From: a virus
Lineage: Duplodnaviria > Heunggongvirae > Uroviricota > Caudoviricetes
Reading direction: 5' to 3' (one strand)
Length of the DNA stretch: 42,009 bases
IMG/VR virus record: IMGVR_UViG_2541047963_000003
The notes below the pieces were generated by a model. It was not told the origin of the DNA, did no database searches, and saw nothing but the letters and a program-made list of their open reading frames with translations. The translations under genes and the position numbers were made by a program. Of the stretch, positions 2,062 through 23,273 are shown in pieces. Numbering within the stretch: position 1 is the stretch's first letter; every line of letters starts with the position of its first letter.

Positions 2062-2279
2062 TTAATCCCCCTTTGTTTGCGGATAAGCTCCAGATCTTGC
2101 TGGCAACTGGCGCAAGTACGACAACCCTGAACGGCCAGTCGTCTTCGTTCATCTATCGGATCGCCACACTCACAACAATGAGTGGCAGATACAGCCAGGT
2201 AGTTCAGGCGGCGCATTTTTATTGCTGTGTTGCGCTGTAATTCTTCTATTTCTGATGCTGAATCAATGATGTCTGCCAT
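2058..2279 (-). CDS. TraR/DksA-family C4 zinc-finger protein
   Basis: 73-aa ORF with CxxC...CxxC (CCECGDPIDERRRLAVQGCRTCASCQ), typical of phage TraR-like RNAP-binding proteins. Confidence 0.7.
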   Translation of the reverse strand: MADIIDSASEIEELQRNTAIKMRRLNYLAVSATHCCECGDPIDERRRLAVQGCRTCASCQQDLELIRKQRGIK

Positions 2280-2285
2280 CTTTCA

Positions 2286-2375
2286 TTAATCCCTGAACTG
2301 TTGGTTAATACGCTTGAGGGCGAATGCGAATAATAAAAAAGGAGCCTGTAGCTCCATGATGATTTTGTTTTTCAT
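2286..2375 (-). CDS. Putative 29-aa small protein (hydrophobic core)
   Basis: Minus-strand ATG at 2375; translation MKNKIIMELQAPFLLFAFALKRINQQFRD; wedged between two ORFs with 2-6 nt spacing; below the 60-aa ORF-track cutoff. Confidence 0.25.
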   Translation of the reverse strand: MKNKIIMELQAPFLLFAFALKRINQQFRD

Positions 2376-2377
2376 GT

Positions 2378-2593
2378 TCACCGTTCCTTAAAGACGCCGT
2401 TTAACATGCCGATCGCCAGGCTTAAATGAGTCGGTGTGAATCCCATCAGCGTTACCGTTTCGCGGTGCTTCTTCAGTACGCTACGGCAAATGTCATCGAC
2501 GTTTTTATCCGGAAACTGCTGTCTGGCTTTTTTGATTTCATAATTAGCCTGACGGGCAATACTGCGAAGGGCGTTTTCTTGCTGAGGTGTCAT
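2378..2593 (-). CDS. Hypothetical early protein (lambda orf63-position)
   Basis: 71-aa product from internal ATG (MTPQQENALRS...); start overlaps the stop of the upstream small ORF in an ATGA arrangement. Confidence 0.5.
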   Translation of the reverse strand: MTPQQENALRSIARQANYEIKKARQQFPDKNVDDICRSVLKKHRETVTLMGFTPTHLSLAIGMLNGVFKER

Positions 2594-2673
2594 TGAACAA
2601 GTCCCATGTCGGCAAGCATAAGCACACAGAATATGAAGCCCGCTGCCAGAAAAATGCATTCAGTGGTTGTCAT
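2590..2673 (-). CDS. Putative 27-aa hydrophobic peptide
   Basis: Minus-strand ATG at 2673 preceded by GAGAGAG 7 nt upstream; translation MTTTECIFLAAGFIFCVLMLADMGLVQ; stop overlaps next start (ATGA). Confidence 0.25.
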   Translation of the reverse strand: MTTTECIFLAAGFIFCVLMLADMGLVQ

Positions 2674-2887
2674 ACCTGGTCTCTCTCATCTGCTTCTGCT
2701 TTCGCCACCATCATTTCCAGCTTTTGTGAAAGGGATGTGGCTAACGTATGAAATTCTTAGTCTGTTTCTACTGGTATTGGCACAAACCTGACTCCAATTT
2801 GAGCGAGGCTATGTGCCATCTCGATACTCGTTCTTAACTCAACGGGAGATGCTTTGTGCATACAGCCCCTCGTTTATTATTTATCTC

Positions 2888-3016
2888 CTAAGCCAGCCGC
2901 TGGGCTTTCAGTGGATTTTGGATAACAGAAAGGCCGGGAAATACCCAGTCTCGCTTTGTAACGGAGTAGATGAAAGTGATCGCGCCTACCCGGATATTAT
3001 CGTGAGGGTGCGTCAT
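2888..3016 (-). CDS. Lambda orf60a-like protein, 42 aa (shorter than the 60-aa lambda form)
   Basis: Translation [42 protein letters not shown] matches my recollection of the lambda orf60a N-terminus; start overlaps exo stop (ATGA). Confidence 0.4.
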
Positions 3017-3693
3017 CGCCATTGCTCCCCAAATACAAAACCAATTTCAGCCAGTGCCTCGTCCATTTTTTCGATGAACTCCGGCACCATCTCGTCAAAA
3101 CTCGCCATGTACTTTTCATCCCGCTCAACCACGACATAATGCAGTCCTTCACGCTTCATACGCGGGTCATAGTTGGCAAAGTACCAGGCATCTTTTCGCG
3201 TCACCCACATGCTGTACTGCACCTGGGCCATGTAAGCTGACTTTATGGCCTCGAAACTACCGAGCCGGAACTTCATGAAATCCCGGGAGGTAAACGGGCA
3301 TTTCAGTTCAAGGCCGTTGCCGTCACTGCATAAACCATCTGGAGAGCAGGCGGTACGCATACTTTCGTCGCGATAGATGATCGGTGATTCAGTAACATTC
3401 ACGCCGGAAGTGAACTCAAACAGGGCTCTGGCGTCGTTCTCGTACTGTTTTCCCCAGGCCAGCGCTTTAGCGTTAACTTCCGGAGCCACACCGGTGCAAA
3501 CCTCAGCAAGCAGGGTGTGGAAGTAGGACATTTTCATGTCAGGCCACTTTTTTCCGGAGCGGGGTTTTGCTATTACGTTATGAACTTCTGAAGCTGTGAT
3601 GACGCCGAGCCGTAATTTGTGCCACGCATCATCCCCCTGTTCGACAGCTCTCACGTCGATCCCGGTACGCTGCAGGATAATGTCCGGTGTCAT
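3013..3693 (-). CDS. exo: Lambda exonuclease (Red-alpha)
   Basis: 226-aa ORF; full-length, near-identical by recollection to lambda Exo ([50 protein letters not shown]...). Confidence 0.95.
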
Positions 3694-4475
3694 GCTGCCA
3701 CCTTCTGCTCTGCGGCTTTCTGTTTCAGGAATCCAAGAGCTTTTACTGCTTCGGCCTGTGTCAGTTCTGACGATGCGCGAATGTCGCGGCGAAATATCTG
3801 GGAACAGAGCGGCAATAAGTCGTCATCCCATGTTTTATCCAGGGCGATCAGCAGAGTGTTAATCTCCTGCATGCTTTCATCGTTAACCGGAGTGATGTCG
3901 CGTTCCGGCTGGCGTTCTGCAGTGTATGCGGTATTTTCGACAATGCGCTCGGCTTCATCCTTGTCATAGATACCAGCAAATCCGAAGGCCAGGCGGGCAC
4001 ACTGAATCATGGCTTTATGCCGTAACATCCGTTTGGGATGCGACTGCCACGGGCCGGTGATTTCTCTGCCTTCGCGGGTTTTGAATGGTTCGCGGCGGCA
4101 TTCATCCATCCATTCGGTAACGCAGATCGGATGATTACGGTCCTTGCGGTAAATCCGGCATGTACAGGATTCATTGTCCTGCTCAAAGTCCATGCCATCA
4201 AACTGCTGGTTTTCATTGATGATGCGGGACCAGCCATCAACGCCCACCACCGGAACAATGCCGTTCTGCTTATCAGGGAAGGCGTAAATTTCTTTCGTCC
4301 ACGGATTAAGGCCGTACTGGTTGGCGACGATCAACAATGCGATGAACTGCGCATCGCTGGCATCACCTTTAAATGCCGTCTGGCGAAGAGTGGTGATCAG
4401 TTCCTGTGGGTCGACAGAATCCATGCCGACACGTTCAGCCAGCTTCCCTGCCAGCGTTGCGAGTGCTGTACTCAT
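3690..4475 (-). CDS. bet: Recombination protein Bet (Red-beta, ssDNA annealing)
   Basis: 261-aa ORF; full-length match to recalled lambda Bet; overlaps exo start by 4 nt. Confidence 0.95.
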
Positions 4476-4480
4476 CCGTT

Positions 4481-4777
4481 TTATACCTCTGAATCAATAT
4501 CAACCTGGTGGTGAGCAATGGTTTCAACCATGTACCGGATGTGTTCTGCCATGCGCTCCTGAAACTCAACATCGTCATCAAACGCACGGGTAATGGCTTT
4601 TTTGCTGGCCCCGTGGCGTTGCAAATGATCGATGCAGAGTGATTCAAACAGGTGCTGGGACAGACCCTTTTCCATGTCGTCTGCCAGTTCTGCCTCTTTC
4701 TCTTCACGGGCGATCTGCTGGTAGTGACGTGCCCAGCTCTGAGCCTCAAGACGATCCTGAATGTAATAAGCGTTCAT
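4481..4777 (-). CDS. gam: Gam (RecBCD inhibitor), 98-aa short form
   Basis: [21 protein letters not shown]... matches lambda GamS; the in-frame upstream region reads ...FRSSA then hits a stop, so the 138-aa long form is not encoded. Confidence 0.9.
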
Positions 4778-4852
4778 GGCTGAACTCCTGAAAATGGCTG
4801 TGAAAATATCGCCCGCGAAATGCCCGGCTGATTAGGAAAACAGGAAAGGGGA

Positions 4853-5143
4853 TTAGTGATTGAGGCCGTTGCCGCGTCCGTCGAGAAAAACTTCCACGAG
4901 CAAATCACGGGTATAAGTGCGCTCGATGCCGCGATGCAGATAAAGCCGTCCGCGTAAATTAGCTGATGCAGTCCAGGTACCATCTTTGTGTTTGACCAGC
5001 ATTCCTGGCATGACCGCACCTCGATTAACGGTCTGCGTTCCGTAATGTTGATGAACCATAAAAACTCCTGCCCGTAAGCTGGGCTGCTGAACATATAGAG
5101 ACTTCTGCGCGTATTCAGGCGGTGGATGGCCGCCGGTTGTCAT
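4853..5143 (-). CDS. Hypothetical protein at the kil position (possibly shorter from an internal Met)
   Basis: 96-aa ORF; stop lies 76 nt upstream of the gam ATG, the spacing I recall for lambda kil relative to GamS; sequence not recognised. Confidence 0.35.
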
Positions 5144-5335
5144 AACTAAGCCGCCTCGTTGAAGCGACTAAGGTATGAAATGTTGAGTTGATTTCAGCTG
5201 GTCACACCGACGTTCACGCGTCCGTTTCACCCCTCGCACTCCCCGAAGCCTGCTGAAATTCAAACTGCGGATCTAAGCGGTCATCGCAACGGTGAATCAG
5301 GTAGTTGCCGTATCGTTGTGTTGTTGCGATGAACT

Positions 5336-5410
5336 TATTTAAAACTATAGTTGTTTTATCGTCAACAACAAAAGTTGTTTTATTGGTTGTTTTAGATATA
5401 ACTGGTTGTA
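5336..5410 (-). promoter_or_regulatory. Putative pL promoter and oL operator cluster
   Basis: On the minus strand, -35 TTGACG (plus 5360-5365), 17-18 nt spacer, -10 TTAAAT/TAAATA; spacer ATAAAACAACTATAGTT nearly identical to the pR spacer; GTTGTT/AACAAC inverted repeats at 5350-5369 and 5364-5379; repeated (A/G)GTTGTT at 5349, 5373, 5385, 5403. Confidence 0.5.
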
Positions 5411-5504
5411 TTTAGGATGGATTTATTTTGTGACTTGAATCGCATAGCGATAACTGAAGCGAGGTTATGGTGGTTTTTTTAACGGTGTGTGTGATGAGGG
5501 GAGG

Positions 5505-5533
5505 GCAAAAGAAAACCCGGCACGGTGACCGGG
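5505..5533 (-). terminator. Candidate intrinsic terminator downstream of the repressor gene
   Basis: Minus-strand hairpin CCCGG-N8-CCGGG (plus 5516-5533) followed by TTTTCTTTT on the minus strand; stem is only 5 bp. Confidence 0.35.
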
Positions 5534-5654
5534 ATTCTTACGCCGTTAGGTAAAGATATTATTGCGGTGGCTTAATATTACTACCTAGAGCAAAGATAGG
5601 AATTAGTTCTTTACTGAATGAGCACAATGCCCAGTTGATAATTTTTAATTGGTA

Positions 5655-6344
5655 CTACCCATGCTTCCTATATGTCTGCGGCATGCTCCCAATAACCTTA
5701 CCGAAGATGAACACCCGGTTCATCTCGTCTTTCTCGATCGGGTCCCACGGTGAGTAGCTTTTGTTATCAGAGATGACCAGCAGCTTATCCTTCATCATTT
5801 GCAGGCGCTTTACATGGGCTGTGTCGTCGTACAGAAACGCATAGATACCATCACCGTCGAAAGATTTAACTGTGATATCAACGAACAGCAGATCACCTGG
5901 TTCGATCGTTCCTGACATGCTGTCACCACGCACGTTAATGATGCGGATATTTTCCGCCTTCCTACCATCGAACATGTGACGAGCATCGTCAAACGAGTAC
6001 TCAACCGAGCGTAGAACTTCTACAAACTCACGGTTGATGACTCCCGGCCCAGCACTGACTTCTATATCAAGAACGTCAATCTTGAAGTATTTGGAATGGC
6101 TGACAGTTGATTGTATTGGTTGCACTGTACTGTCTGACATATTTCCAACGCCAGAAGATAACCATTCTGCGCGCACACCCAAAGCGTTCGCGATCTCCAC
6201 GATTTTAGTTGTTTGATTAGCTTTCCCTGTTTCGATTTTCTGAATAGCAGCCTGGCTAACCCCGACCAAATCCCCAAGCGCCTTTTGTGTAAGGCCTCGC
6301 GCTAATCTGGCTTCTTTAAGTCTTTCTGAGAGTGTTGTTTTCAT
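5655..6344 (-). CDS. cI: Prophage repressor, cI-like (XRE-family HTH plus S24 LexA-like peptidase domain)
   Basis: 229 aa from MKTTLSERLKEARLARGLTQKALGDLVGVSQAAIQKIETG (HTH); C-terminal GDSM...KRL resembles the S24 Ser/Lys dyad region; divergent from cro across an operator region. Confidence 0.85.
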   Translation of the reverse strand: MKTTLSERLKEARLARGLTQKALGDLVGVSQAAIQKIETGKANQTTKIVEIANALGVRAEWLSSGVGNMSDSTVQPIQSTVSHSKYFKIDVLDIEVSAGPGVINREFVEVLRSVEYSFDDARHMFDGRKAENIRIINVRGDSMSGTIEPGDLLFVDITVKSFDGDGIYAFLYDDTAHVKRLQMMKDKLLVISDNKSYSPWDPIEKDEMNRVFIFGKVIGSMPQTYRKHG

Positions 6345-6353
6345 AGTCCAAAT

Positions 6354-6421
6354 GTACAACCAAGGTTTTATTCCATCAAACGAAAATGGTTGTTGACTAA
6401 AAACAACCATAGTTTTAATCT
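6354..6421 (+). promoter_or_regulatory. oR operators and pR promoter
   Basis: Perfect palindrome ATGGTTGTT-GACTAAA-AACAACCAT at 6386-6410 overlapping -35 TTGACT (6393-6398); 17-nt spacer; -10 TAATCT (6416-6421); imperfect site ACAACCAAGGTTTT at 6354-6369 beside the cI start; cro RBS GGAGG at 6439-6443. Confidence 0.6.
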
Positions 6422-6448
6422 TGATTCAAGTTAACCACGGAGGTTGTT

Positions 6449-6679
6449 ATGAACCCAGCTATCAAAACAGCGATCAATATCGTTGGTTCACAAAAGAAAC
6501 TGGGCGCTGCTTGCGAAGTTTCACAGCAGGCCGTCTATAAGTGGCTTCACAACAAAGCAAAGGTATCCCCTGAACATGTCGGCAGCATTGTTACGGCTAC
6601 TGGTGGAGTAGTGAAGGCATACCAGATTCGCCCGGATCTTCCGAAGTTGTTTCCACACACCGAAAAGAACGCAGCTTAA
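6449..6679 (+). CDS. cro: Cro-like repressor (YdaS/Cro-type HTH)
   Basis: 76-aa ORF divergent from the repressor; VGSQKKLGAACEVSQQAVYKW is an HTH like Rac YdaS/Cro-family proteins. Confidence 0.8.
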   Translation: MNPAIKTAINIVGSQKKLGAACEVSQQAVYKWLHNKAKVSPEHVGSIVTATGGVVKAYQIRPDLPKLFPHTEKNAA

Positions 6680-6748
6680 ATTTCCATTTCACGCTCTTTA
6701 ACAATAAGCAATCAACTTAACAGTCAATTCAAACTAAAGGAGTCAATT

Positions 6749-7288
6749 ATGCAACCACTTACATACCAACAGACTAGCGGATTTAGCCCGACTGCGGTGA
6801 TAAATCGTTCTCAAACAAAACAGGTGCCAGGCCACGAAAAAATCCGTGATGCCGTCCGCGCCTGGTCGGCTGTAGATAATCAGGATGTCGTTGCCACACT
6901 CATTGTGAATGAGTATCGGGAGCAGGGCGGCGGCACCATCGATTTCCCTGATGATGTCAGCCGTGCACGCCAGAAGCTGTTCCGCTTCCTCGATAACAAA
7001 TTCGATTCTGAAAAATACCGAAATAACGTGCGTGAACTGACCCCGGCAATTCTGGCGGTACTACCGCTGGAATATCGCGGTTACCTGGTTGAGCAGGATA
7101 GCTTCATGGCTAGGTTGGCTGAAATGGAAAAGGAACTCAGTGAGGCAAAACAGGCTGTCATTCTCAACGCACCACGCCACCAGAAACTGAAGGAAATTAG
7201 TGAAGGTATTGTGTCGATGTTTCGTGTGGACCCAGATCTGGCTGGTCCATTGATGGCGATGGTTACTACCATGCTGGGGGCGATATGA
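6749..7288 (+). CDS. CII-position regulator, possibly CP76/phage-186-CII-like
   Basis: 179-aa ORF between cro and O with RBS AGGAG; size and position fit the CP76-type CII family rather than 97-aa lambda CII; family assignment from memory only. Confidence 0.5.
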   Translation: MQPLTYQQTSGFSPTAVINRSQTKQVPGHEKIRDAVRAWSAVDNQDVVATLIVNEYREQGGGTIDFPDDVSRARQKLFRFLDNKFDSEKYRNNVRELTPAILAVLPLEYRGYLVEQDSFMARLAEMEKELSEAKQAVILNAPRHQKLKEISEGIVSMFRVDPDLAGPLMAMVTTMLGAI

Positions 7289-7374
7289 CAGGTTCAGAAA
7301 TGGCGAAAGCCGGTCTGCTGGAACAGAACCGACTTTCAGGTGCAAATCGTAACACACTCATTGCGGGAGGAATT

Positions 7375-8304
7375 ATGGCAAACACTGCTGAGATATTCAA
7401 TTTTCCAGTGCCGGATGCGGCACAAAAGGAGCCGCGCGTGGCAGATCTCGATGATGGTTATACGCGCATTGCAAATGAGTTGCTGGAAGCTGTGATGCTG
7501 GCCGGATTAACACAGCACCAGCTTCTGGTCTTCCTGGCTGTCATGCGCAAAACATATGGCTTTAATAAAAAACTGGATTGGGTGAGCAACGAGCAACTTT
7601 CCGAGTTGACCGGGATATTGCCGCACAAGTGTTCTGCTGCAAAAAGTGTTCTGGTAAAGCGTGGGATTTTTATTCAGAGCGGGCGGAATATCGGCATTAA
7701 TAATGTGGTCAGTGAATGGTCAACATTACCCGAATCAGGTAAGAAAAATAAAGTTTACCTGAAAGAGGTAAATTTACCTGAATCAGGTAAGAAAAGTTTA
7801 CCCAAATCAGGTAAAGACGTTTACCCGAATCAGGTAAACACAAAAGACAAACTAACAAAAGACAATATAAAACCTTTTTCGTCCGAGAATTCTGGCGAAT
7901 CCTCTGACCAGCCAGAAAACGATCTTCCTGTGGTGAAACCGGATGCTGCAATTCAGAGCGGCAGCAAGTGGGGGACAGCAGAAGACCTGACCGCCGCAGA
8001 GTGGATGTTTGACATGGTGAAGACCATCGCGCCATCAGCCAGAAAACCGAATTTTGCAGGGTGGGCTAACGATATCCGCCTGATGCGTGAACGTGACGGA
8101 CGTAACCACCGCGACATGTGTGTACTGTTCCGCTGGGCATGCCAGGACAACTTCTGGTCCGGTAACGTGCTAAGTCCGGCCAAACTCCGCGACAAGTGGA
8201 CCCAACTCGAAATCAACCGTAACAAGCAACAGGCTGGCGTGACAGCCGGAAAATCAAAACTCGACCTGACAAACACTGACTGGATTTATGGGGTGGATTT
8301 ATGA
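7375..8304 (+). CDS. O: Replication initiator O
   Basis: NVADLDDGYxR...LLEA, RKTYG, LPESGK repeats and the C-terminal LSPxKxRDKWTQLEINRNKQQAGVTAGKxKLDLTNTDWIYGVDL match lambda O; start placed at ATG 7375 (RBS GGGAGG); track ORF opens at 7285. Confidence 0.9.
   Translation: MANTAEIFNFPVPDAAQKEPRVADLDDGYTRIANELLEAVMLAGLTQHQLLVFLAVMRKTYGFNKKLDWVSNEQLSELTGILPHKCSAAKSVLVKRGIFIQSGRNIGINNVVSEWSTLPESGKKNKVYLKEVNLPESGKKSLPKSGKDVYPNQVNTKDKLTKDNIKPFSSENSGESSDQPENDLPVVKPDAAIQSGSKWGTAEDLTAAEWMFDMVKTIAPSARKPNFAGWANDIRLMRERDGRNHRDMCVLFRWACQDNFWSGNVLSPAKLRDKWTQLEINRNKQQAGVTAGKSKLDLTNTDWIYGVDL
7726..7875. repeat. Replication origin: five ~18-bp iterons plus AT-rich segment inside O
   Basis: TTACC(C/T)GAAtCAGGTAA-like repeats at 7726-7742, 7754-7772, 7773-7791, 7797-7815, 7820-7838, followed by the A-rich stretch CACAAAAGACAAACTAACAAAAGACAATATAAAACC. 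Confidence 0.7.
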
Positions 8305-9002
8305 AAAACATCGCCGCACAGATGGTTAACTTTGACCGTGAGCAGATGCGTCGGATCGCCAACAACATGCCGGAACAGTACGACGAAAAGCCGCAGGTAC
8401 AGCAGGTAGCGCAGATCATCAACGGTGTGTTCAGCCAGTTACTGGCAACTTTCCCGGCGAGCCTGGCTAACCGTGACCAGAACGAACTGAACGAAATCCG
8501 CCGCCAGTGGGTTCTGGCTTTCCGGGAAAACGGGATCACCACGATGGAACAGGTTAACGCAGGAATGCGCGTAGCCCGTCGACAGAATCGACCATTCCTG
8601 CCATCACCCGGGCAGTTTGTTGCCTGGTGTCGTGAAGAAGCATCTGTTATTGCCGGACTGCCAAACGCCAGCGAGCTGGTTGATATGGTTTACGAGTATT
8701 GCCGGAAGCGTGGACTGTATCCAGATGCAGAGTCTTATCCGTGGAAATCAAACGCGCACTACTGGCTGGTTACCAATCTGTACCAGAACATGCGGGCCAA
8801 TGCGTTGACTGACGCGGAATTACGGCGCAAGGCTGCCGATGAACTGTCCTGTATGACCGCGCGAATTAACCGTGGTGAGGCTATACCTGAACCAGTAAAA
8901 CAACTTCCTGTCATGGGCGGTAGACCTCTAAATCGTGCACAGGCTCTGGCGAAGATCGCAGAAATCAAAGCTAAGTTCGGACTGAAAGGAGCCAGTGTAT
9001 GA
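8301..9002 (+). CDS. P: Replication protein P (DnaB helicase loader)
   Basis: 233-aa ORF; full-length match to recalled lambda P; overlaps O stop. Confidence 0.95.
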   Translation: MKNIAAQMVNFDREQMRRIANNMPEQYDEKPQVQQVAQIINGVFSQLLATFPASLANRDQNELNEIRRQWVLAFRENGITTMEQVNAGMRVARRQNRPFLPSPGQFVAWCREEASVIAGLPNASELVDMVYEYCRKRGLYPDAESYPWKSNAHYWLVTNLYQNMRANALTDAELRRKAADELSCMTARINRGEAIPEPVKQLPVMGGRPLNRAQALAKIAEIKAKFGLKGASV

Positions 9003-9301
9003 CGGGAAAAGAAGCAATTATTCATTACCTGGGGGCTCATAAGAGCTTCTGTGCGCAGGACGTTGCTGCGGTAACAGGCGCAACAGTAACCAGCATAAAT
9101 CAGGCTGCGGCTAAAATGGCGCGGACAGGAATCTTAGTTATTGATGGTAAGGTCTGGCGAACGGTGTATTACCGGTTCGCTACCAGGGAAGAACGGGAAG
9201 GAAAGGTGAGCACGAATCTGATTTTCAAGGAGTGTCGCCAGAGTGCCGCGATGAAGCGGGTATTGAGGGTATATAAAAGAACATCAATGGGTACACAATG
9301 A
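8999..9301 (+). CDS. ren: Ren exclusion protein
   Basis: MTGKEAIIHYLGAHKSFCAQDVAAVTGATVTSINQAAAKMAR... matches lambda Ren. Confidence 0.9.
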   Translation: MTGKEAIIHYLGAHKSFCAQDVAAVTGATVTSINQAAAKMARTGILVIDGKVWRTVYYRFATREEREGKVSTNLIFKECRQSAAMKRVLRVYKRTSMGTQ

Positions 9302-9314
9302 TGAAACAGGTGAG

Positions 9315-9701
9315 TTGAGTTCAAACTGTAGTACAATTCTCTCCAGTTTGAACAGGAAAGAATATGCTATTAACCCTTATATTTATCTTGGTGGTGCAAT
9401 ACTTGCAGAGGTCATTGGTACAACCTTAATGAAGTTTTCAGAAGGTTTTACACGGTTATGGCCATCTGTTGGTACAATTATTTGTTATTGTGCATCATTC
9501 TGGTTATTAGCTCAGACGCTGGCTTATATACCTACAGGGATTGCTTATGCTATCTGGTCAGGAGTCGGTATTGTCCTGATTAGCTTACTATCATGGGGAT
9601 TTTTCGGCCAACGGTTGGACCTGCCAGCCATTATAGGCATGATGTTGATTTGTGCCGGTGTGTTGGTTATTAATTTATTGTCACGAAGCACACCACATTA
9701 A
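9315..9701 (+). CDS. emrE: SMR-family multidrug efflux protein EmrE (start codon uncertain)
   Basis: Residues from NPYIYLGGAILAEVIGTTLMKFSEGFTRLWPSVGTII... to ...LSRSTPH match E. coli EmrE; the position of the canonical Met reads ATT (9369-9371); the track ORF starts at TTG 9315; RBS AGGAAAG at 9354-9360. Confidence 0.8.
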   Translation: MSSNCSTILSSLNRKEYAINPYIYLGGAILAEVIGTTLMKFSEGFTRLWPSVGTIICYCASFWLLAQTLAYIPTGIAYAIWSGVGIVLISLLSWGFFGQRLDLPAIIGMMLICAGVLVINLLSRSTPH

Positions 9702-9956
9702 AAATAATTTATTTTTAAACGACTAAAATATGGAGGTTCGTATATTTGTATGGGCCTCGTTTTATGCTTTTTGTTAATGTCTTTAGTTTTTATTCATTCT
9801 TTTGATCTTTCAAGATTATGGTGTAAGAAAATTGCAATACGATTATTGTTGTATATTCAAGATAATGTGACCTTAATTGTCTTTTTAAATAAAAATTAAA
9901 CAAAAATCATATCTCACCACTAAGGTTTATAAAAGCATACTTTAGCAGGTGTCACC

Positions 9957-11483
9957 ATGAAAAAAGCCATAGCATATATGCGATTTTCATCACCAGGTCA
10001 GATGTCTGGTGATTCATTAAACCGCCAGAGAAGGCTTATTACTGAATGGCTAAAGGTAAATAGTGATTATTACCTTGATACCGTAACGTATGAAGATTTG
10101 GGGTTAAGCGCATTCAATGGAAAGCATGCACAATCAGGAGCTTTTTCGGAATTTTTAGATGCTATAGAACATGGTTACATATTGCCAGGGACTACATTGT
10201 TAGTTGAAAGTCTGGACAGACTTTCAAGAGAAAAAGTCGGTGAAGCGATTGAGCGTCTGAAATTGATTTTGAATCACGGTATTGATGTTATAACTCTTTG
10301 CGATAATACAGTCTATAATATAGACTCATTGAATGAGCCATATTCATTAATAAAAGCCATACTTATAGCACAAAGGGCAAATGAAGAAAGCGAGATAAAG
10401 TCAAGTCGGGTTAAATTATCATGGAAGAAAAAACGGCAGGATGCACTGGAATCAGGCACGATTATGACGGCGTCTTGTCCGAGATGGCTCTCATTGGATG
10501 ACAAAAGAACAGCTTTTATTCCAGACCCCGACAGGGTGAAAACGATTGAGCTAATTTTTAAACTCAGGATGGAAAGGCGATCATTGAATGCAATAGCTAA
10601 GTATTTAAATGATCATGCTGTAAAAAATTTTTCAGGAAAAGAAAGTGCATGGGGGCCTTCTGTAATTGAAAAATTATTAGCGAATAAAGCTCTGATAGGT
10701 ATATGCGTACCTTCATATCGTGCAAGAGGGAAAGGGATAAGTGAAATCGCTGGCTATTATCCCAGAGTCATATCAGATGATTTGTTTTACGCTGTACAGG
10801 AAATTCGGTTGGCACCTTTTGGTATTAGCAATAGTAGCAAGAATCCTATGCTAATAAATCTACTTCGAACAGTTATGAAGTGTGAGGCTTGTGGTAATAC
10901 CATGATTGTTCATGCGGTATCTGGACGTTTGCATGGCTATTATGTTTGTCCGATGAGAAGATTACATCGATGTGACAGGCCATCAATAAAAAGAGATTTG
11001 GTTGATTATAATATCATTAATGAATTGCTTTTTAATTGTAGCAAAATTCAACCAGTTGAAAACAAGAAAGATGCTAATGAAACTTTAGAGTTAAAAATTA
11101 TTGAGCTTCAGATGAAAATTAATAATTTAATCGTTGCATTGTCTGTCGCGCCTGAAGTTACCGCTATAGCAGAGAAAATAAGACTATTAGATAAGGAATT
11201 ACGAAGGGCTTCGGTATCATTAAAAACTTTGAAGAGTAAAGGGGTGAGTTCACTTGGTGATTTTCATGCTATTGATTTAACCAGTAAAAATGGGCGAGAG
11301 CTATGTCGTACACTTGCCTATAAAATATTCGAAAAAATTATAATTAATACAGATAATAAAACCTGTGATATCTATTTTATGAATGGCATTGTTTTTAAAC
11401 ACTATCCTTTAATGAAAGTAATATCCGCCCAGCAGGCGATAAGTACTCTTAAATATATGGTTGATGGTGAGATTTATTTTTGA
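9957..11483 (+). CDS. ybcK: Large serine recombinase (YbcK-like)
   Basis: 508 aa; N-terminal resolvase-type catalytic region (AIAYMRFSSPGQ...LLVESLDRLSR), Cys-rich zinc-ribbon-like segment (CEACGN...CPMRRLHRCD), C-terminal coiled-coil-like region; matches my recollection of DLP12 YbcK; visibly AT-rich gene. Confidence 0.85.
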   Translation: MKKAIAYMRFSSPGQMSGDSLNRQRRLITEWLKVNSDYYLDTVTYEDLGLSAFNGKHAQSGAFSEFLDAIEHGYILPGTTLLVESLDRLSREKVGEAIERLKLILNHGIDVITLCDNTVYNIDSLNEPYSLIKAILIAQRANEESEIKSSRVKLSWKKKRQDALESGTIMTASCPRWLSLDDKRTAFIPDPDRVKTIELIFKLRMERRSLNAIAKYLNDHAVKNFSGKESAWGPSVIEKLLANKALIGICVPSYRARGKGISEIAGYYPRVISDDLFYAVQEIRLAPFGISNSSKNPMLINLLRTVMKCEACGNTMIVHAVSGRLHGYYVCPMRRLHRCDRPSIKRDLVDYNIINELLFNCSKIQPVENKKDANETLELKIIELQMKINNLIVALSVAPEVTAIAEKIRLLDKELRRASVSLKTLKSKGVSSLGDFHAIDLTSKNGRELCRTLAYKIFEKIIINTDNKTCDIYFMNGIVFKHYPLMKVISAQQAISTLKYMVDGEIYF

Positions 11484-11808
11484 GTAATAATCACTTTTTC
11501 AACCGTGCTATGGTATGAAAGTAAAGTAACTAATATGATATTAACTATCTTGAACGAAGCGCCCTGAGCTATAGTTTTACTATAGGCACTGTCACTGGAT
11601 GTTGGCATTCTTGCTCTAGTAGCTCAACAATACCCAATCACAAAACAATTCACTGATAACAAACTTTGTGCACGTGCTTGGTTATGGCGAACAGGTGATG
11701 TTAACCTCTTGCCAGAATGCCACTCCACTTCATTAAGTATCTGAGCACCGAGAGGCTGGTCACGCCCCCATTAAAAATAATTTCTTTTGAATCGAGTGAA
11801 ATAGGTTA

Positions 11809-11834
11809 GCCCGCATAAGTGCGGGCTGCTTTTT
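11809..11834 (+). terminator. Intrinsic terminator hairpin between ybcK region and the convergent esterase gene
   Basis: GCCCGC-ATAAGT-GCGGGC stem-loop followed by TGCTTTTT; overlaps the esterase stop codon. Confidence 0.5.
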
Positions 11835-12876
11835 ACAGGTCAGCGTTTGTTTTTTGTTGTTGGGTAGCGGTTTTTATGGGGGTTCCCAGGTTTTTAGTAA
11901 ACCACTCAACAACTCTGTTTATAATAATTGGCTGATACCATGTATTATCGCCATGCTCGGCCCCTTCTACCAGCACGTACTCAGCGTTATCACCGTTCTT
12001 CTTCAACATCCTGAATAGTTTGGCGCTTTGCTCAGGTGAAACCAGAGTGTCTTTGCTACCATGCATAATAAGAAATGGGGGTTTTACTCCTTTCATATGT
12101 CCGATTGGACTGGCGTTTAGCGCTTTTTCTTTTGACGCTGTGATGGGGGCTCCCGCAAAATTTCTGAATGCAGGGCCATTGATCATTAAGGCTTCGGTTA
12201 CGGCAGGAGAGCGATGAACCTCCTGCACTGATTCAGGGAACCCCTCGCCAATATTCAACAAGTCAGAAATCCCATAAAGTGTGGCAACTGCCTGAACATC
12301 TGAGGATTGCTGAAGAAAGTCACCTTTATCAAAGGTTTTGTCACCATTTGTAGTTCCCATCATCTGGGCAAGCCATCCACCGGCAGAGTCACCCAGAACT
12401 CCGATTCTTTGAGGATCAATCCCATAATTGCTGGCATGCTCTCTCAGGTAACGTATTGCAGCTTTTCCATCCTCAACTGGTGCTGGAAATGTATCAGGAA
12501 TTGTTCTGTATTCTACAGCGGCCACAACAAAACCAGCTTCTGCCAGAGCCATTCTCATTTCAATAAATTTGTCATGTTCAGAAGACATGAATCCGCCGCC
12601 GGGATAATAAATAATGGCTGGTTTTAAATCATTTGTTCGCGGGACAAGAACTGACATGTGAAGCTGTCTGACAGAACGAGTTCCTTTTATCTGGGAATAA
12701 ACAACATCACCAATGAGATCGACCTGGTTTCTGGTCGGTGAAACACTAATGATATCTGCACCCGGGGTGTAACCAGGAAGATTAGTCTGGACAGGTGTTG
12801 CACAACTCCCGACCGACATGGCCATTGACATACCATACAATAGTGTTGCAGATGATAATATCTTGTTAATTTTCAT
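11833..12876 (-). CDS. Secreted alpha/beta-hydrolase, hormone-sensitive-lipase-family esterase/lipase (possible lipoprotein)
   Basis: 347 aa; N-terminal signal peptide with possible lipobox (MSVGSC); oxyanion-hole PGGGF; nucleophile elbow GDSAGG; downstream HGSKD and AEHG consistent with an Asp/His triad. Confidence 0.8.
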   Translation of the reverse strand: MKINKILSSATLLYGMSMAMSVGSCATPVQTNLPGYTPGADIISVSPTRNQVDLIGDVVYSQIKGTRSVRQLHMSVLVPRTNDLKPAIIYYPGGGFMSSEHDKFIEMRMALAEAGFVVAAVEYRTIPDTFPAPVEDGKAAIRYLREHASNYGIDPQRIGVLGDSAGGWLAQMMGTTNGDKTFDKGDFLQQSSDVQAVATLYGISDLLNIGEGFPESVQEVHRSPAVTEALMINGPAFRNFAGAPITASKEKALNASPIGHMKGVKPPFLIMHGSKDTLVSPEQSAKLFRMLKKNGDNAEYVLVEGAEHGDNTWYQPIIINRVVEWFTKNLGTPIKTATQQQKTNADL

Positions 12877-13174
12877 GTTTTACATGCCTTGACTTATCGG
12901 ATGAAATTCTCTTACTGAATTTAACGGCAGTTTAATAGCCGTACAACTCGTGGTAGCCAGGGAAATATCCCAGTCGTGGTTAAGGTTGTACTTGACGGCT
13001 ATTATTTCAACAATGCTTAAAGTGAGAGCTTAAGGTTATGCGTATGTTTTACAGTCCGAGTAGATTCTGACCAATAGCTTCTTTGTATAATTCTGTCAGA
13101 AATAAATCTTGGCTTGCATGAAGTTTGAGACCTTATCTTGTTTGATTATGAATAATCAATTCGCCATAATTGTA

Positions 13175-13201
13175 TCACCGGAGCCTGAACAACTCCGGTG
13201 A
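13175..13201. promoter_or_regulatory. Perfect 9-bp inverted repeat upstream of ybcN
   Basis: TCACCGGAG-CCTGAACAA-CTCCGGTGA; no adjacent T-run on either strand, so not a canonical terminator. Confidence 0.35.
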
Positions 13202-13323
13202 CTTCTGCGCTAAACGGGGACGTTTATGCGCACACACAATCCAAACTCTCTTCTCCCTTCACAGATGCAGAAATGCACCTGCGTTTTTTTGCATCCAGCG
13301 TCTGACCTCTGTGGAGGTGAAGC

Positions 13324-13779
13324 GTGAACCTACCACAAGATGGCATCAAACTGCATCGCGGTAACTTCATCGCTATCGGCCAGCAGATCCAGCCTTATCT
13401 GGAGGACGGAAAATGCTTTCGCATGGTGCTTAAACCGTGGCGTGAGAAACGCAGTCTTTCCCAGAATGCACTCAGCCACATGTGGTACAGCGAAATCAGT
13501 GAATACCTCATCAGCAGGGGTAAAACGTTCGCCACTCCAGCTTGGGTAAAAGATGCTCTCAAACACACTTATCTCGGTTATGAAACCAAAGAACTGGTTG
13601 ATGTCGTAACCGGTGAAATCACCACCATTCAGTCATTACGTCATACCTCCGATCTCGATATCGGAGAGATGTATGTCTTCCTGTGTAAGGTTGAAGCCTG
13701 GGCGATGAATATTGGCTGCCACCTGACTATTCCGCAGAGCTGCGAGTTCCAGCTGCTGCGCGACAAGCAGGAGGCGTAA
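13324..13779 (+). CDS. ybcN: YbcN-like nin-region protein (DLP12 YbcN, reported DNA base-flipping protein)
   Basis: 151-aa ORF starting at GTG with RBS GGAGGTG; sequence matches my recollection of K-12 YbcN; same position in the nin operon. Confidence 0.75.
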
Positions 13780-13949
13780 TGGCTACACCGCTTATTCGTG
13801 TCATGAACGGACACATCTACAAAGTACCAAATCGTCGTAAGCGTAAACCTGAGCTGAAGCCATCCGAAATACCAACACTGCTCGGGTATACCGCCAGCCT
13901 GGTTGATAAAAAATGGTTGCGACTGGCAGCAAGGAGGAATAATGGCTGA
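13779..13949 (+). CDS. ninE: NinE-like protein
   Basis: 56-aa ORF ([56 protein letters not shown]); start overlaps the ybcN stop (TAATG); below the track cutoff. Confidence 0.65.
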   Translation: MATPLIRVMNGHIYKVPNRRKRKPELKPSEIPTLLGYTASLVDKKWLRLAARRNNG

Positions 13950-14232
13950 TTTAAGAAAAGCAGCGCGTGGTCGGGAATGCCAGGTAAGAATCCCTGGCGT
14001 ATGTAATGGCAATCCTGAAACGTCAGTACTGGCACATATCCGGCTGGCTGGATTGTGCGGTACCGGTATCAAACCGCCAGACCTGATTGCCACCATTGCA
14101 TGTTCTGCCTGCCACGACGAAATCGACCGTCGCACGCATTTTGTTGACGCTGGATATGCAAAAGAATGCGCGCTGGAAGGTATGGCGAGAACACAGGTTA
14201 TCTGGTTGAAAGAGGGGGTTATTGAGGCGTGA
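13942..14232 (+). CDS. ybcO: YbcO-like putative Cys-rich metal-binding nuclease
   Basis: 96 aa from [37 protein letters not shown]...; matches recalled DLP12 YbcO; overlaps the ninE stop. Confidence 0.75.
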
Positions 14233-14591
14233 ATACCTACAGCATCACATTACCCTGGCCTCCGAGCAATAATCGCTATTACCGCCATAATCGTGGGCGC
14301 ACGCATATCAGCGCAGAGGGGCAGGCATACCGCGATAATGTCGCCCGAATCATTAAAAACGCAATGCTGGATATCGGCCTGGCTATTCCTGTGAAAATCA
14401 GCATTGAGTGCCACATGCCGGATCGCCGTCGCCGTGACCTTGATAATCTGCAAAAGGCCGCTTTTGACGCACTCACCAAAGCAGGTTTCTGGCTGGATGA
14501 TGCTCAGGTCGTTGATTACCGCGTTGTGAAGATGCCCGTTACCAAAGGTGGGAAGCTGGAGCTGACTATCACTGAACTGGGAGATGAATGA
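14229..14591 (+). CDS. rusA: Holliday-junction resolvase RusA
   Basis: 120-aa ORF matching E. coli RusA ([28 protein letters not shown]...[29 protein letters not shown]). Confidence 0.9.
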
Positions 14592-14728
14592 TGTTTGAGT
14601 CTTATATGGCAGAGCGTCTTCGCCGCCGCTGGGTGCGCCTGCGCTTATATCGTTTTCCTGGTTCTGTTTTGACCGATTACCGGATACTGAAGAATTACGC
14701 CAAAACACTGAAAGGAGCTGCCGCATGA
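14588..14728 (+). CDS. ylcG: YlcG-like small protein
   Basis: 46-aa [49 protein letters not shown], overlapping rusA stop and the next start; below the track cutoff. Confidence 0.5.
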
Positions 14729-16041: not shown

Positions 16042-16504
16042 TCCTCAGCGTAAAGCTTTCCTCGATATGTTGGCGTGGTCAGAAGGAACGGATAACGGAC
16101 GGCAGCCAACCCGCAATCACGGCTACGACGTCATTGTTGGCGGAGAGCTATTCACTGATTACTCCGATCACCCTCGCAAACTTGTCACGCTAAACCCCAA
16201 ACTCAAATCAACAGCAGCCGGACGTTACCAGCTTCTTTCCCGTTGGTGGGATGCTTACCGTAAGCAGCTTGGCCTGAAAGACTTCTCTCCCAAAAGTCAG
16301 GACGCTGTGGCACTGCAACAGATTAAAGAGCGTGGCGCTTTACCGATGATTGACCGCGGTGATATTCGTCAGGCAATCGACCGTTGCAGCAATATCTGGG
16401 CTTCACTGCCGGGCGCTGGTTATGGCCAGTTCGAGCATAATGCTGACAGCCTGATTGCAAAATTCAAAGAAGCAGGCGGAACGGTCAGAGAGATTGAGGT
16501 ATGA
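16028..16504 (+). CDS. R: Endolysin R (lambda-type lytic transglycosylase)
   Basis: 158-aa ORF near-identical by recollection to lambda R ([21 protein letters not shown]...). Confidence 0.95.
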
Positions 16505-16962
16505 GCAGAGTCACCGCGATTATCTCCGCTCTGATTATCTGCATCATCGTCTGCCTGTCATGGTCTGTTAATCATTACCGTGATAACGCCATTACCTACA
16601 AAGCCCAGCGCGACAAAAATGCCAGAGAACTGAAGCTGGCGAACGCGGCAATTACTGACATGCAGATGCGTCAGCGTGATGTTGCTGCGCTCGATGCAAA
16701 ATACACGAAGGAGTTAGCTGATGCGAAAGCTGAAAATGATGCTCTGCGTGATGATGTTGCCGCTGGTCGTCGTCGGTTGCACATCAAAGCAGTCTGTCAG
16801 TCAGTGCGTGAAGCCACCACCGCCTCCGGCGTGGATAATGCAGCCTCCCCCCGACTGGCAGACACCGCTGAACGGGATTATTTCACCCTCAGAGAGAGGC
16901 TGATCACTATGCAAAAACAACTGGAAGGAACCCAGAAGTATATTAATGAGCAGTGCAGATAG
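16501..16962 (+). CDS. Rz: Spanin inner-membrane subunit Rz
   Basis: 153 aa with N-terminal TM segment and coiled-coil body; matches lambda Rz. Confidence 0.9.
16721..16903 (+). CDS. Rz1: Spanin outer-membrane lipoprotein Rz1, embedded in Rz in the +1 frame
   Basis: 60-aa ORF with lipobox (VVGC) and the proline run [15 protein letters not shown], as in lambda Rz1. Confidence 0.85.
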
Positions 16963-16993
16963 AGCTGCCCATATCGATGGGCAACTCATGCAA

Positions 16994-17287
16994 TTATTGT
17001 GAGCAATACACACGCGCTTCCAGCGGAGTATAAATGCCTAAAGTAATAAAACCGAGCAATCCATTTACGAATGTTTGCTGGGTTTCTGTTTTAACAACAT
17101 TTTCTGCACCACCACAAATTTTTGCTGCATCGACAGTTTTCTTCTGCCCAATTCCCGAAACGAAGAAATGATGGGTGATGGTTTCCTTTGGTGTTACTGC
17201 TGTAGGTTTGTTTCCAACAGTAAATGTCTGTTGAGCACATCCTGTAATAAGCATTGCCAGAGCGGCAGAAAACAACATTTTTTTCAT
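16994..17287 (-). CDS. bor: Bor lipoprotein (serum-resistance moron)
   Basis: 97 aa from MKKMLFSAALAMLITGCAQQTF...; matches lambda Bor; the track ORF extends 16 codons further upstream. Confidence 0.9.
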   Translation of the reverse strand: MKKMLFSAALAMLITGCAQQTFTVGNKPTAVTPKETITHHFFVSGIGQKKTVDAAKICGGAENVVKTETQQTFVNGLLGFITLGIYTPLEARVYCSQ

Positions 17288-17767
17288 CTTATTATCCTGC
17301 ATTGTTAAAAACGGCAGAATCCTATGTGACAACAATTAAACGATAGTTAAATGGATTGATGAAAATTAAAACTACACAGGTGGGCTCAGACTATTGGAGG
17401 AAGTTGGGGACACTCAGAATCCTGTGGAATGAAATAAACCGGTCTATCCGTCCATTACCCTTTTAGCTGCGCTGTATCGTCGCCGGATTCCCGCATTAAC
17501 CATGACCGTAGCCCGACGGGGAATTCCTTCTGCGTGAGTGTGCGGGAATAATTAAAAACGATGCACACCGGGTTTTTACCGCGTTAATGATTCGCGGGTT
17601 TATCCCGGTGCGATGGTGGAAGAAACAGGAAGCTGTATTACAGAAAGTGCTACTACTGTATCCCGATGCGATGTATGTAATGTGAGTCAGATAATGGCAC
17701 AGGATGTGGTGATGTGGCAGTCTGGAACACAGGATATATTGTCAGAATAAGACCCGTAGGAATAAAA

Positions 17768-18094
17768 ATGAAAAGACGCCTTTTACTACTTTTTCTGTTA
17801 TCTGTCCTGGCAGTGGGATGCTCGCAGCAAAAAGCTGATGAGCCCCGGCAATTAGTGACGGTGTATCCACGATATCCGGAATATGCTGCAGCAAATTATA
17901 TCAAGGGGCTGGTTGAGGTTAAGTTCGATATTGGTGCTGATGGGACTGTGACACGGATCGTTTTTCTCCGCTCAGAGCCTCATAATTTGTTTCGTGATGA
18001 AGTGGTGAAGGCCATGGCGAAATGGCGATTTGAAAAGAATCGCCCCTGTCAGGGAGTGAAGAGACAATTTATCTTTACGCCGTCACGTCCTTGA
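17768..18094 (+). CDS. Lipoprotein with a TonB C-terminal-like domain
   Basis: Signal peptide plus lipobox (MKRRLLLLFLLSVLAVGC); segment YPEYAAANYIKGLVEVKFDIGADGTVTRIVFLRSEPHNLFRDEVVKAMAKWRFE aligns by eye with E. coli TonB C-terminal domain ([45 protein letters not shown]); RBS AGGA 7 nt upstream. Confidence 0.6.
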   Translation: MKRRLLLLFLLSVLAVGCSQQKADEPRQLVTVYPRYPEYAAANYIKGLVEVKFDIGADGTVTRIVFLRSEPHNLFRDEVVKAMAKWRFEKNRPCQGVKRQFIFTPSRP

Positions 18095-18457
18095 TGCTTC
18101 CAGGTAGAGAGGGGCTGGAAGCAGGAGAAAAATGAAAGAGCCAGCGGTTATATTTTTGTCATGGCTGACGAGGAATGATGGAAGAAGGCGTTGTATGCCA
18201 CACAACGCCTCACTGTTCATTTCTTCTTTTTCTCTGGTGGAACCCGATGAATAAGAGTTGCACTGGTTTCCGATGAGATGGCGATATACTCGGGCAAAGT
18301 ATGCTGGCAGTTTTCCAACTGGTCAAAAATACCTGCTCTCGTCTGTTGCAATGCCTGCAGCATGCGGCGGCAATGCGCCTTGCTTTTACTAACCATCTTT
18401 CCTTCCTCTATCAGTCGCTGCGTGAACTCATCATGGAATACCAGGTAAATGCGGATG

Positions 18458-18709
18458 TTATCGGTTTTGGCTACGCAGCATAGTACAAAACGGACAGGTG
18501 CATCCCGGGACGGGGGAGGCGTCACATGTCCCTGTGATGGTTGTTCCGGGTAATGTACTGTGTGGGGCATAAAAATGTCCGATAATTTTACTTTCTACCG
18601 CAGTTAGTTGATTCGTTGGTCCTGGTAGCACATTGGGCGAGGATTTAAATGCCAGGCAACTGAAGGATGATGTCGCAAGGGAGATAGCGAGAATATTTCT
18701 GATTTTCAT
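18458..18709 (-). CDS. Hypothetical small secreted Cys-containing protein
   Basis: 83 aa from internal ATG (MKIRNILAISLATSSFSCLA...) with signal-peptide-like N-terminus and GTCDASPVPGCTCPFC; overlaps other ORFs on both strands, so the true coding frame here is uncertain. Confidence 0.25.
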   Translation of the reverse strand: MKIRNILAISLATSSFSCLAFKSSPNVLPGPTNQLTAVESKIIGHFYAPHSTLPGTTITGTCDASPVPGCTCPFCTMLRSQNR

Positions 18710-18829
18710 TTGATGATGCCTCTGTGTGAAATGACGGTAAACGACGCACTTGTGCCGGCACGTAATAGCAAGCACCATAATAGATCAGATTCGATTCTTG
18801 CTGTAAGTGATAATTATTCTCGTTTTTGG

Positions 18830-19040
18830 GTCCTTTCCGTCGATCCAACAGGTTACGGGGCGGCGACCTCGCGGGTTTTCGCTATTTATGAAAATTTTCC
18901 GGTTTAAGGCGTTTCCGTTCTTCTTCGCCGTAACTTAATGTTTTTATTTAAAATACCCCCTGAAAAGAAAGGAAGCGACAGGTGCTGAAAACGGGCTTTT
19001 TGGCCTCTGTCGTTTCCTTTCTCTGTTTTTGTCCGTGGAA
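18830..19040. other. cos: cos packaging site (cosQ, cosN, cosB)
   Basis: GGGCGGCGACCT at 18858-18869 is the lambda 12-nt cohesive end, followed by CGCGGGTTTTCGCTATTTATGAAAATTTTCCGG (lambda left-end sequence); Nu1 starts 178 nt downstream. Confidence 0.85.

Positions 19041-19592: not shown

Positions 19593-23273
<3,681 letters not shown>

Follow-up and report, generated by a model that had tools for sequence, protein, structure and literature searches.

Phage-type serine integrases (A118/LI, Bxb1, PhiC31, TP901-1) are the closest described systems to YbcK, the product of the ybcK gene in a 42,009-nt Caudoviricetes sequence (IMG/VR record IMGVR_UViG_2541047963_000003; "the window" denotes this whole stretch). 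YbcK shares the domain order and fold of these enzymes, including a zinc ribbon with an inserted coiled coil, although it is only 13–21% identical to them and carries an extra C-terminal β domain (residues 458–507). Unlike these integrases, it is encoded in the nin region of a phage that has its own tyrosine integrase and excisionase (Int/Xis), away from the phage att site, and neither a cognate attP/attB nor a candidate recombination directionality factor is identifiable from sequence. Sister-clade large serine recombinases (LSRs), here represented by loci L182 and L181, are 44% identical to YbcK at the amino acid level, have the same Pfam domains, and belong to the same Enterobacterales family. 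Their genes sit 36–70 bp from a precise host junction and are associated with a 7-nt core, a dyad-symmetric attP, and many empty sites, whereas ybcK shows none of these features.

Small elements could in principle be moved by a serine recombinase with no duplication of the target. By comparison with TnpX/Tn4451, TndX/Tn5397, and IS607, neither multiple insertion sites nor conserved ends nor a circular junction were found for ybcK; IS607 transposases are small and have a different domain order. The surroundings of ybcK resemble lambdoid nin/b-region morons and Hendrix-type mosaicism, with variable cargo, atypical composition, bounding terminators, and fragments or partial duplications at the joints. 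Unlike a classical moron, ybcK appears to lack detectable expression in the lysogen (PMC9928086, PMC4150792), and its product is a DNA recombinase and not a factor for host fitness.

The window is a Perceval/DLP12-type lambdoid prophage. Escherichia phage Perceval (OV696612), which can be induced from the Crohn's-associated E. coli strain LF82, matches window positions 1–1749, 2100–5524, 6748–14718, and 16502–18857 at 96–99% identity. Over the ybcK region, identity is 99.9% with Perceval, 4A7, Lambda_4C10, D2, 1W, 3W, and PhiR47_2. We favour, with moderate confidence, an account of the locus as ordinary lambdoid mosaicism around a conserved recombinase gene that has no identifiable att partner. 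The components of the variable slot are all already annotated, and lambdoid module exchange is a known phenomenon.

YbcK and the variable slot beside its gene

Domain searches, alignment, and structure modelling agree with the original prediction, made from the window sequence alone, that ybcK encodes a protein with LSR layout. In particular, YbcK matches the Pfam families Resolvase (8.2e-19), Recombinase (2.3e-14), and Zn_ribbon_recom (4.6e-08), as well as PHROG 95, integrase (6e-120). In a 19-sequence family alignment spanning E. coli to alpha-proteobacteria, residues Y7, R9, S11, Q15, D87-R88-L89-S90-R91, R140, E143, and E144 are invariant, as are the zinc-ribbon cysteines C309, C312, C331, and C339. 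The original prediction had allowed that YbcK might prove to lack the catalytic serine motif on proper alignment; the S11 motif is present and invariant. The AlphaFold2 model of YbcK (predicted local distance difference test score of 79) reveals a long helix E, a zinc ribbon, and coiled-coil helices (residues 368–397 and 401–430), and Foldseek searches with the model retrieve full-length serine integrases, including PhiC31, Bxb1, and A118 (E-values of 2e-18 to 1e-10). YbcK is, on these comparisons, a complete integrase-type LSR and is predicted to be catalytically competent. The papers that we searched neither describe YbcK as a recombinase nor assign it a function; one paper on ybcK deals with Rho-dependent termination upstream of the gene (PMC4150792).

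In the model, the C-terminal domain at residues 458–507 (DNA ~11328–11480) is β-rich and follows the coiled coil. This segment corresponds to PHROG 2371 (function unassigned), is conserved in the Enterobacterales family, and gave no match among solved integrases.

Comparison of alleles shows strong purifying selection on ybcK, which keeps the gene functional. Specifically, ybcK is intact in 87/87 copies over 50 alleles, with dN/dS of 0.064–0.077 between diverged allele types (dS of 0.12–0.18) and of 0.16 for the close L002–L004 pair. It is because every copy is intact and dN/dS is ~0.07, while the adjacent open reading frame (ORF) ylcJ is truncated or frameshifted in 34/83 ybcK-bearing loci, that we regard ybcK as functional and under selection.

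Between about one in four and one in three complete E. coli genomes (1,399–1,690 of 5,426) carry ybcK. We typed the architecture of the slot in 80 IMG/VR loci, 76 of which have a readable left flank (of the others, two begin at ybcK and two at emrE). The left context is ren-emrE-ylcJ-ybcK in 76/76 loci with a left flank. To the right of ybcK, the loci fall into the following types:

Type A (window): antirepressor fragment, emrE 3′ remnant, and esterase gene; 11 of 80 loci
Type B (K-12): 268 bp followed by ybcL-ybcM; ~22 of 80 loci
Type C: truncated antirepressor gene and a gene for a 260-aa protein; ~41 of 80 loci
Type D: deletions; 6 of 80 loci

These architectures, at least four in number, bear out the proposal of a cargo-exchange hotspot, which lies on the right-hand side of ybcK, and the order ybcK, ybcL, ybcM expected for K-12 DLP12 is reproduced. 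An invariant ybcK neighbourhood would have spoken against the proposal; across the loci, the right side varies and the left side is constant. The antirepressor gene continues as an intact ORF in type C, the commonest architecture, and is full length in ybcK-less phages.

The slot also occurs without ybcK, and there its content again differs from phage to phage. The ybcK-less loci L007, L183, L184, L008, and L009 differ in content and have the boundary at 13141 in common. The slot holds two hypothetical genes in L007; a full-length Rha antirepressor gene and others in PhiR5_1 and an O111 prophage; emrE-esterase in L009; and emrE-ybcL-ybcM in L008, a prophage remnant next to fliE. Since the slot from ren to ybcN is equally variable without ybcK, the hotspot belongs to the nin-region slot and not to ybcK. 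Given this equal variation and the constant left context, the data lend no support to ybcK itself driving the exchange.

The L008 remnant (5078–6937; E. coli AH19B041, fliE-yedF locus) consists of emrE-ybcL-ybcM and, after these genes, traces of the ybcN leader and of quuD. Many E. coli strains carry this remnant, in which ylcJ-ybcK is missing from between emrE and ybcL and which is ~90% identical to DLP12.

The ybcK alleles are mosaic: the allele nearest to the 5′ half differs from that nearest to the 3′ half, and cargo type does not follow allele. In particular, window ybcK shares 98.5% identity with type C alleles over its 5′ half and 95.7% over its 3′ half, with the pattern reversed against K-12 alleles. 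The different nearest relatives of the two halves imply recombination breakpoints inside the gene, and the mosaicism implies that homologous exchange occurs within the conserved left flank.

Anatomy, composition, and expression of the slot

The features of the window that bear on the slot are as follows (ORFs and untranslated regions, UTRs, are in window coordinates):

1–1143 (−): lambda-type tyrosine integrase, for the phage's own integration (Pfam Arm-DNA-bind_1 1.8e-28, Phage_integrase 8.7e-24)
1133–1369 (−): excisionase (Pfam Exc 6.7e-06)
9369–9701 (+): emrE, a small multidrug resistance (SMR) efflux pump moron that anchors the slot on its left (Pfam Multi_Drug_Res 3.5e-35)
9693–9730 (+): direct repeat copy 1, comprising the last 8 nt of emrE, the stop codon, and ~29 nt of 3′UTR
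9733–9758 (+): terminator-like hairpin with T-run, the emrE terminator, directly after repeat copy 1 and overlapping the ylcJ ATG
9750–9899 (+): ylcJ, a 49-aa hydrophobic ORF (Pfam YlcJ-like) within the 26%-GC ybcK leader
9957–11483 (+): ybcK, integrase-type LSR of 508 aa
11484–11555 (+): 3′ flank of ybcK, right edge of the common module, shared by all E. coli types
11595–11761 (+): frameshifted internal fragment (aa ~145–200) of a Rha/P22AR-type antirepressor gene (tblastn and blastn)
11766–11803 (+): direct repeat copy 2, the remnant 3′ end of a second emrE, comprising 8 nt of coding sequence, the stop codon, and 3′UTR
11807–11828 (+): GC-rich terminator hairpin, serving the convergent esterase gene as well as the emrE copy that was lost
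11833–12876 (−): convergent cargo gene for an alpha/beta-hydrolase esterase of the BD-FAE family (Pfam BD-FAE 5.5e-45; PHROG 3341, esterase)
12877–13140 (no strand): region upstream of the esterase gene, where the variable slot ends, seen only in esterase-bearing types
13141–13779 (+): conserved right boundary of the slot, with the ybcN leader, a small ORF, and a ybcN/ninB-like gene (13324–13779)

The integrase and excisionase genes confirm that, as the original prediction noted, the phage already has a tyrosine integrase; the integrase region is 98.7% identical to that of Perceval. On the left of the slot, emrE is 98–99.7% identical over all types, and RefSeq names the gene as emrE in L001 (99.5% identical to the window). 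The start of ylcJ falls inside the emrE terminator hairpin, and ylcJ may be a spurious or dispensable ORF in the ybcK leader. To the right of ybcK, homology to K-12 stops at 11522 by BLAST and at ~11555 by global alignment. The antirepressor fragment, compared by tblastn and blastn with the full-length rha genes of PhiR5_1 and an O111 prophage, is 167 bp long, lies directly left of repeat copy 2, and is shared with type C at 81–87% identity. At the right boundary, homology resumes at 13141–13142 in every architecture, whether ybcK is present or absent.

Two observations concern the esterase end of the slot. The esterase has a lipoprotein-type signal peptide at its N-terminus (MSVGS/C, with the lipobox read by eye), and carriers of its gene include LF82 and ST131 strains as well as truncated prophages beside IS66. 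The counterpart of the 11807–11828 hairpin sits between emrE and the esterase gene in L009, and the esterase gene and the lost emrE copy use one bidirectional terminator.

The stretch from emrE through ybcK to the esterase gene had been described as AT-rich. This holds for the emrE 3′ end, ylcJ, and ybcK, which form the AT-rich trough of the window (the lowest-GC 2064-bp stretch of its 42 kb is 9601–11664, with 35% GC), and holds only mildly for the esterase gene. Specifically, GC content is 0.405 in emrE, 0.263 at 9702–9956, 0.358 in ybcK, 0.410 at 11484–11832, and 0.446 in the esterase gene, against 0.49–0.53 in the flanking genes (P, ybcN, ninE-Q) and 0.517 in the whole window. The island, originally placed at 9702–13170, runs by comparison from ~9265–9302 to 13140 and is thus slightly wider. 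The slot has the features of a moron locus, namely discrete cargo of atypical GC content (0.36–0.45 versus 0.52), terminators at 9733–9758 and 11807–11828, and conserved boundaries. Promoter-like sites in the slot show no excess over the expectation from shuffled sequences, and PADLOC defence models gave 0 matches for YbcK, YlcJ, the esterase, and the type C neighbours.

The ybcK gene lies in the rightward early operon, downstream of the emrE terminator. In K-12, a Rho/NusG-dependent terminator is present in the untranslated region upstream of ybcK, and ybcK mRNA is increased in rho and nusG mutants (PMC4150792). In the LF82 lysogen, ybcK and the esterase gene are not among the Perceval morons expressed in LB, and emrE is induced in DMEM (PMC9928086). 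The K-12 data and the gene order suggest that ybcK is probably silent in the lysogen, behind the emrE terminator and the Rho/NusG-dependent terminator, and that it would be transcribed only on N-antiterminated early read-through, after infection or induction.

Direct repeat, empty sites, and related recombinases

The original prediction placed the att sites of a possible nested module in the non-coding flanks 9702–9956 and 11484–11832. A 38-nt imperfect direct repeat is indeed found in both flanks, with copies that are 84% identical and 2073 bp apart (0 expected in shuffles): copy 1 (9693–9730) is CCACATTAAAAATAATTTATTTTTAAACGACTAAAATA, and copy 2 (11766–11803) is CCCCATTAAAAATAATTTCTTTTGAATCGAGTGAAATA. 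Copy 1 holds a 10+1+10 AT palindrome, TTAAAAATAA-T-TTATTTTTAA, the right arm of which varies among ybcK types. Window 11769–11832 is 100% identical to the emrE 3′ end of L009, identifying copy 2 as the remainder of a second emrE. A terminator hairpin lies 3–4 nt after each copy, and the homology between copies reaches 20 nt past their common 15-bp core, CATTAAAAATAATTT. The interpretation of the repeats as att sites of a nested module fares poorly, since the attP rebuilt from them lacks an outer dyad and the copies are emrE 3′UTRs with terminators.

Two pairs of occupied and empty loci are available: the window and L009 differ by 2073 bp, and K-12 and the fliE remnant L008 differ by 2083 bp. 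Read from left to right, the L009 junction follows copy 1 as far as the shared 15-bp core and copy 2 after it, and the empty emrE/esterase junction reads CACACCACATTAAAAATAATTT/CTTTTGAATCGAGTG. Empty loci number 2 among 5,426 genomes, versus 172 filled, and 4 versus 14 in IMG/VR; they share one junction and are 95–97% identical to the window on both sides. Their divergence of 3–5% and single junction indicate an old lineage and not fresh excisions, and this lineage was probably the donor of the esterase half.

The rebuilt window attP has the inner AT palindrome only, with a dyad score of 12/26 that 246/300 shuffles reach, versus an 11-bp outer inverted repeat and a score of 17/26, reached by 2/300 shuffles, for the sister-clade attP. 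A scan of 9200–13400 revealed no attP-like dyad symmetry, and repeat and dyad searches around the gene revealed no cognate attP/attB pair with a short core for YbcK. The circle junction ...GGTCACGCCCCCATTAAAAATAATTT/ATTTTTAAACGACT... (GGTCACGCCCCCATTAAAAATAATTT/ATTTTTAAACGACTAAAATATGG) has 0 matches in IMG/VR. No insertion at more than one E. coli location was found in 76/76 loci with a left flank, and no repeat is present at the K-12 right junction. Defined element ends common to independent insertions were not found, the K-12 tail being unrelated to the window tail beyond +72.

Several candidate boundaries were considered and rejected. Homology of the K-12 268-bp tail to the window tail, as parts of one coherent 2.07-kb element, gave a global alignment z of 1.2 beyond ~+72. 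For inverted repeats as mini-element ends, shuffles did as well as the best 14-mers of 21 loci, and a 17-nt pair at 9903–9919 and 11465–11481 was accordingly taken as chance. A boundary motif, A[AT]CGA[CG]T, is present at ~−239 in E. coli and at −220 in Pantoea, but the O157-type allele and every other orthologue lack it.

Orthologues of YbcK with 40–60% identity are present in Atlantibacter, Yersinia, Erwinia, Ewingella, Citrobacter, Kluyvera, and Pantoea, and their neighbourhoods were compared over ±8–10 kb. Some lie in the nin region (Atlantibacter L018, Pantoea L039 and L180), and others lie after tail-fibre genes at a prophage edge (L011, by ssrA; L014; L020/21; L027; L176, by lepA; and L178). 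In L011 (8001–10432), L176 (8001–10954), L178, and L014, the recombinase gene is the last phage gene after a tail-fibre assembly gene and faces the host junction. The only tRNA or tmRNA genes beside orthologues are ssrA in Atlantibacter L011 and a tRNA 3′ fragment, read by eye, in Yersinia L014. The Atlantibacter, Erwinia, Ewingella, and Yersinia orthologues could be the primary integrases of their prophages.

Two close pairs define the extent of what is shared: a Pantoea pair in unrelated flanks shares −222 to +58 at 94% identity, and an Atlantibacter pair in two contexts shares −68 to the stop codon at 76% identity. Since close pairs share just the gene and short flanks, the gene travels as a compact ~1.8-kb module. 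Flanking direct repeats are absent from the 17 non-E. coli loci, save for a duplication in Pantoea L039 (9253–12859; Candidatus Pantoea alvi), in which an inverted recombinase gene lies between a full P gene and a partial P′ gene (aa 77–224). P and P′ are only 75% identical, indicating that they come from two phages and form an out-of-register scar, analogous to the one proposed for the window.

The sister clade, whose members have the same three Pfam domains as YbcK, is present in ~300 E. coli genomes and provides recombination sites with resolvable boundaries. In L182 (19883–35297), yecE, a gene that at least 5,139 genomes have intact, is split precisely by a ~15-kb phage-like element that carries tape-measure and baseplate genes. 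Specifically, attB is GGGTGATTTT/AGACAGCC, attL is GGGTGATTTT/TATTAGACACG..., and attR is ...GATGATTTT/AGACAGCC, with a 7-nt core, TGATTTT, no duplication, and the recombinase ATG ~60 bp inside attL. The sister attP is dyad-symmetric (TAGTGTATTTA...TAAATACACTA). A similar element in L181 (~19965–35142) splits mdtG. The precise boundaries in L182 and L181 indicate that family members with resolvable boundaries are true integrases. L182 is from E. coli YJ1 and L181 is from FDAARGOS_944, and the ~15-kb elements are without an annotated tyrosine integrase.

Origin of the locus

As ordinary mosaicism, 9302–13140 would be an accessory slot of the nin region, extending from ren to ybcN/ninB and pieced together by successive phage–phage recombinations. 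In order, it would comprise emrE with its 3′UTR and terminator, ylcJ-ybcK, the antirepressor fragment, a second emrE 3′ end with its terminator, and the convergent esterase moron. The neighbours of ybcK would vary in two ways: conserved sequence on either side (emrE/ybcK to the left, the ybcN leader at 13141 to the right) would serve homologous recombination, and related phages would now and then be joined illegitimately and out of register. The 38-bp repeat would then be the scar of one such event, in which a ybcK-rha′ phage was joined to an emrE-esterase phage, rather than an att site, because it spans the emrE stop codon and 3′UTR, each copy is followed by a terminator, and copy 2 abuts the frameshifted antirepressor fragment; an out-of-register join between two phages is expected to leave an element end inside a gene fragment. 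YbcK itself would most probably be the integrase of an LSR-type integrative element, from which it was captured or which left it behind, as its relatives in yecE and mdtG suggest.

Several points weigh against this mosaic origin. The two occupied/empty pairs both put ylcJ-ybcK within ~30 bp of the emrE stop codon, a regularity that somewhat exceeds what random illegitimate joins would give, and the L009 junction exactly fits recombination in the 15-bp CATTAAAAATAATTT, so that a site-specific or short-homology event may have produced it. The compact ~1.8-kb module (−220/−250 to +60/+70) in E. coli and Pantoea fits a self-mobile cassette too, and mosaicism leaves unexplained the strong purifying selection on a gene without a visible substrate. 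LSR att sites may also be too short or too divergent to be recognized by symmetry alone.

If the locus were a nested mobile element, YbcK would have inserted a 2.07-kb ylcJ-ybcK(-rha′) segment into the emrE 3′ flank of an emrE-esterase phage via CATTAAAAATAATTT, making copy 1 attL, copy 2 attR, and L009 the unoccupied attB. Repeats lying in exactly the predicted flanks with 0 expected by chance, the composition of the L009 junction, the 2083-bp difference at the same place in the K-12/L008 pair, relatives that are real integrases, and a compact module that is alike in Pantoea are all consistent with such an insertion. We nonetheless consider it unlikely, as the P arm of the putative attR would lie inside a truncated, frameshifted antirepressor gene that is an intact ORF in the commonest type, and the continuation of repeat homology for 20 nt past the core, followed by terminators, fits diverged emrE 3′UTRs. 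The rebuilt attP is also without an LSR-type dyad, with one palindrome arm variable among alleles; ybcK follows emrE in every locus with a left flank; and the empties are old with a single junction, no circle junctions occur in IMG/VR, and the K-12 right junction has no repeat. An origin of ybcK as a decaying relic, a functionless leftover of an old integration drifting towards a pseudogene, would account for the lack of visible cognate att sites, the probable silencing in lysogens, and the broken gene fragments around it. That origin is strongly disfavoured by the intact copies and low dN/dS, and by catalytic and zinc-binding residues that are invariant across genera beside an ylcJ that is so often broken, and we regard it as highly improbable.

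It is possible, if doubtful, that ybcK and its relatives are kept because they are still active, either as self-mobile single-gene cassettes, that is, minimal LSR-only elements homing into phage accessory slots, or as trans-acting accessory recombinases, that is, a second recombination system that helps the phage at a site away from the gene. Strong purifying selection without a single decayed copy points this way, as do the 94%-identical 1.8-kb module in unrelated flanks of two Pantoea species, the Atlantibacter orthologue in two contexts, and the recurrence of the family in two phage slots (the nin region and after tail-fibre genes) in at least six genera. The 21 loci have no conserved terminal or inverted repeats, however, and the module edges are fuzzy and depend on genus (−68 to −248 upstream; +0 to +72 downstream). 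The single E. coli location in 76/76 loci with a left flank, for a gene that ~1,400–1,700 genomes carry, and the absence of a permuted prophage with ybcK at its end among the sampled E. coli loci argue in the same direction, and moron-like transfer of single genes by illegitimate recombination would give the same pattern. Taken as a specific proposal, an active YbcK family that either homes as ~1.8–2.1-kb cassettes into nin and tail-fibre-end slots or joins cargo at the emrE 3′ flank seems to us improbable.

Ordinary lambdoid mosaicism around ybcK guards against taking a variable neighbour as the product of recombinase-driven cargo capture. It also leaves a conserved protein that appears equipped for catalysis, is kin to real integrases, and has no visible substrate, and so poses a question that is cheap to ask: does YbcK cut or join DNA on induction? 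If the YbcK family were active, recombination would truly take place at the 38-bp repeats, and their 15-bp AT core would be unusually long for such sites. If YbcK acted on the emrE flank, it would constitute a compact new serine-recombinase system native to E. coli, of some use in genome engineering.

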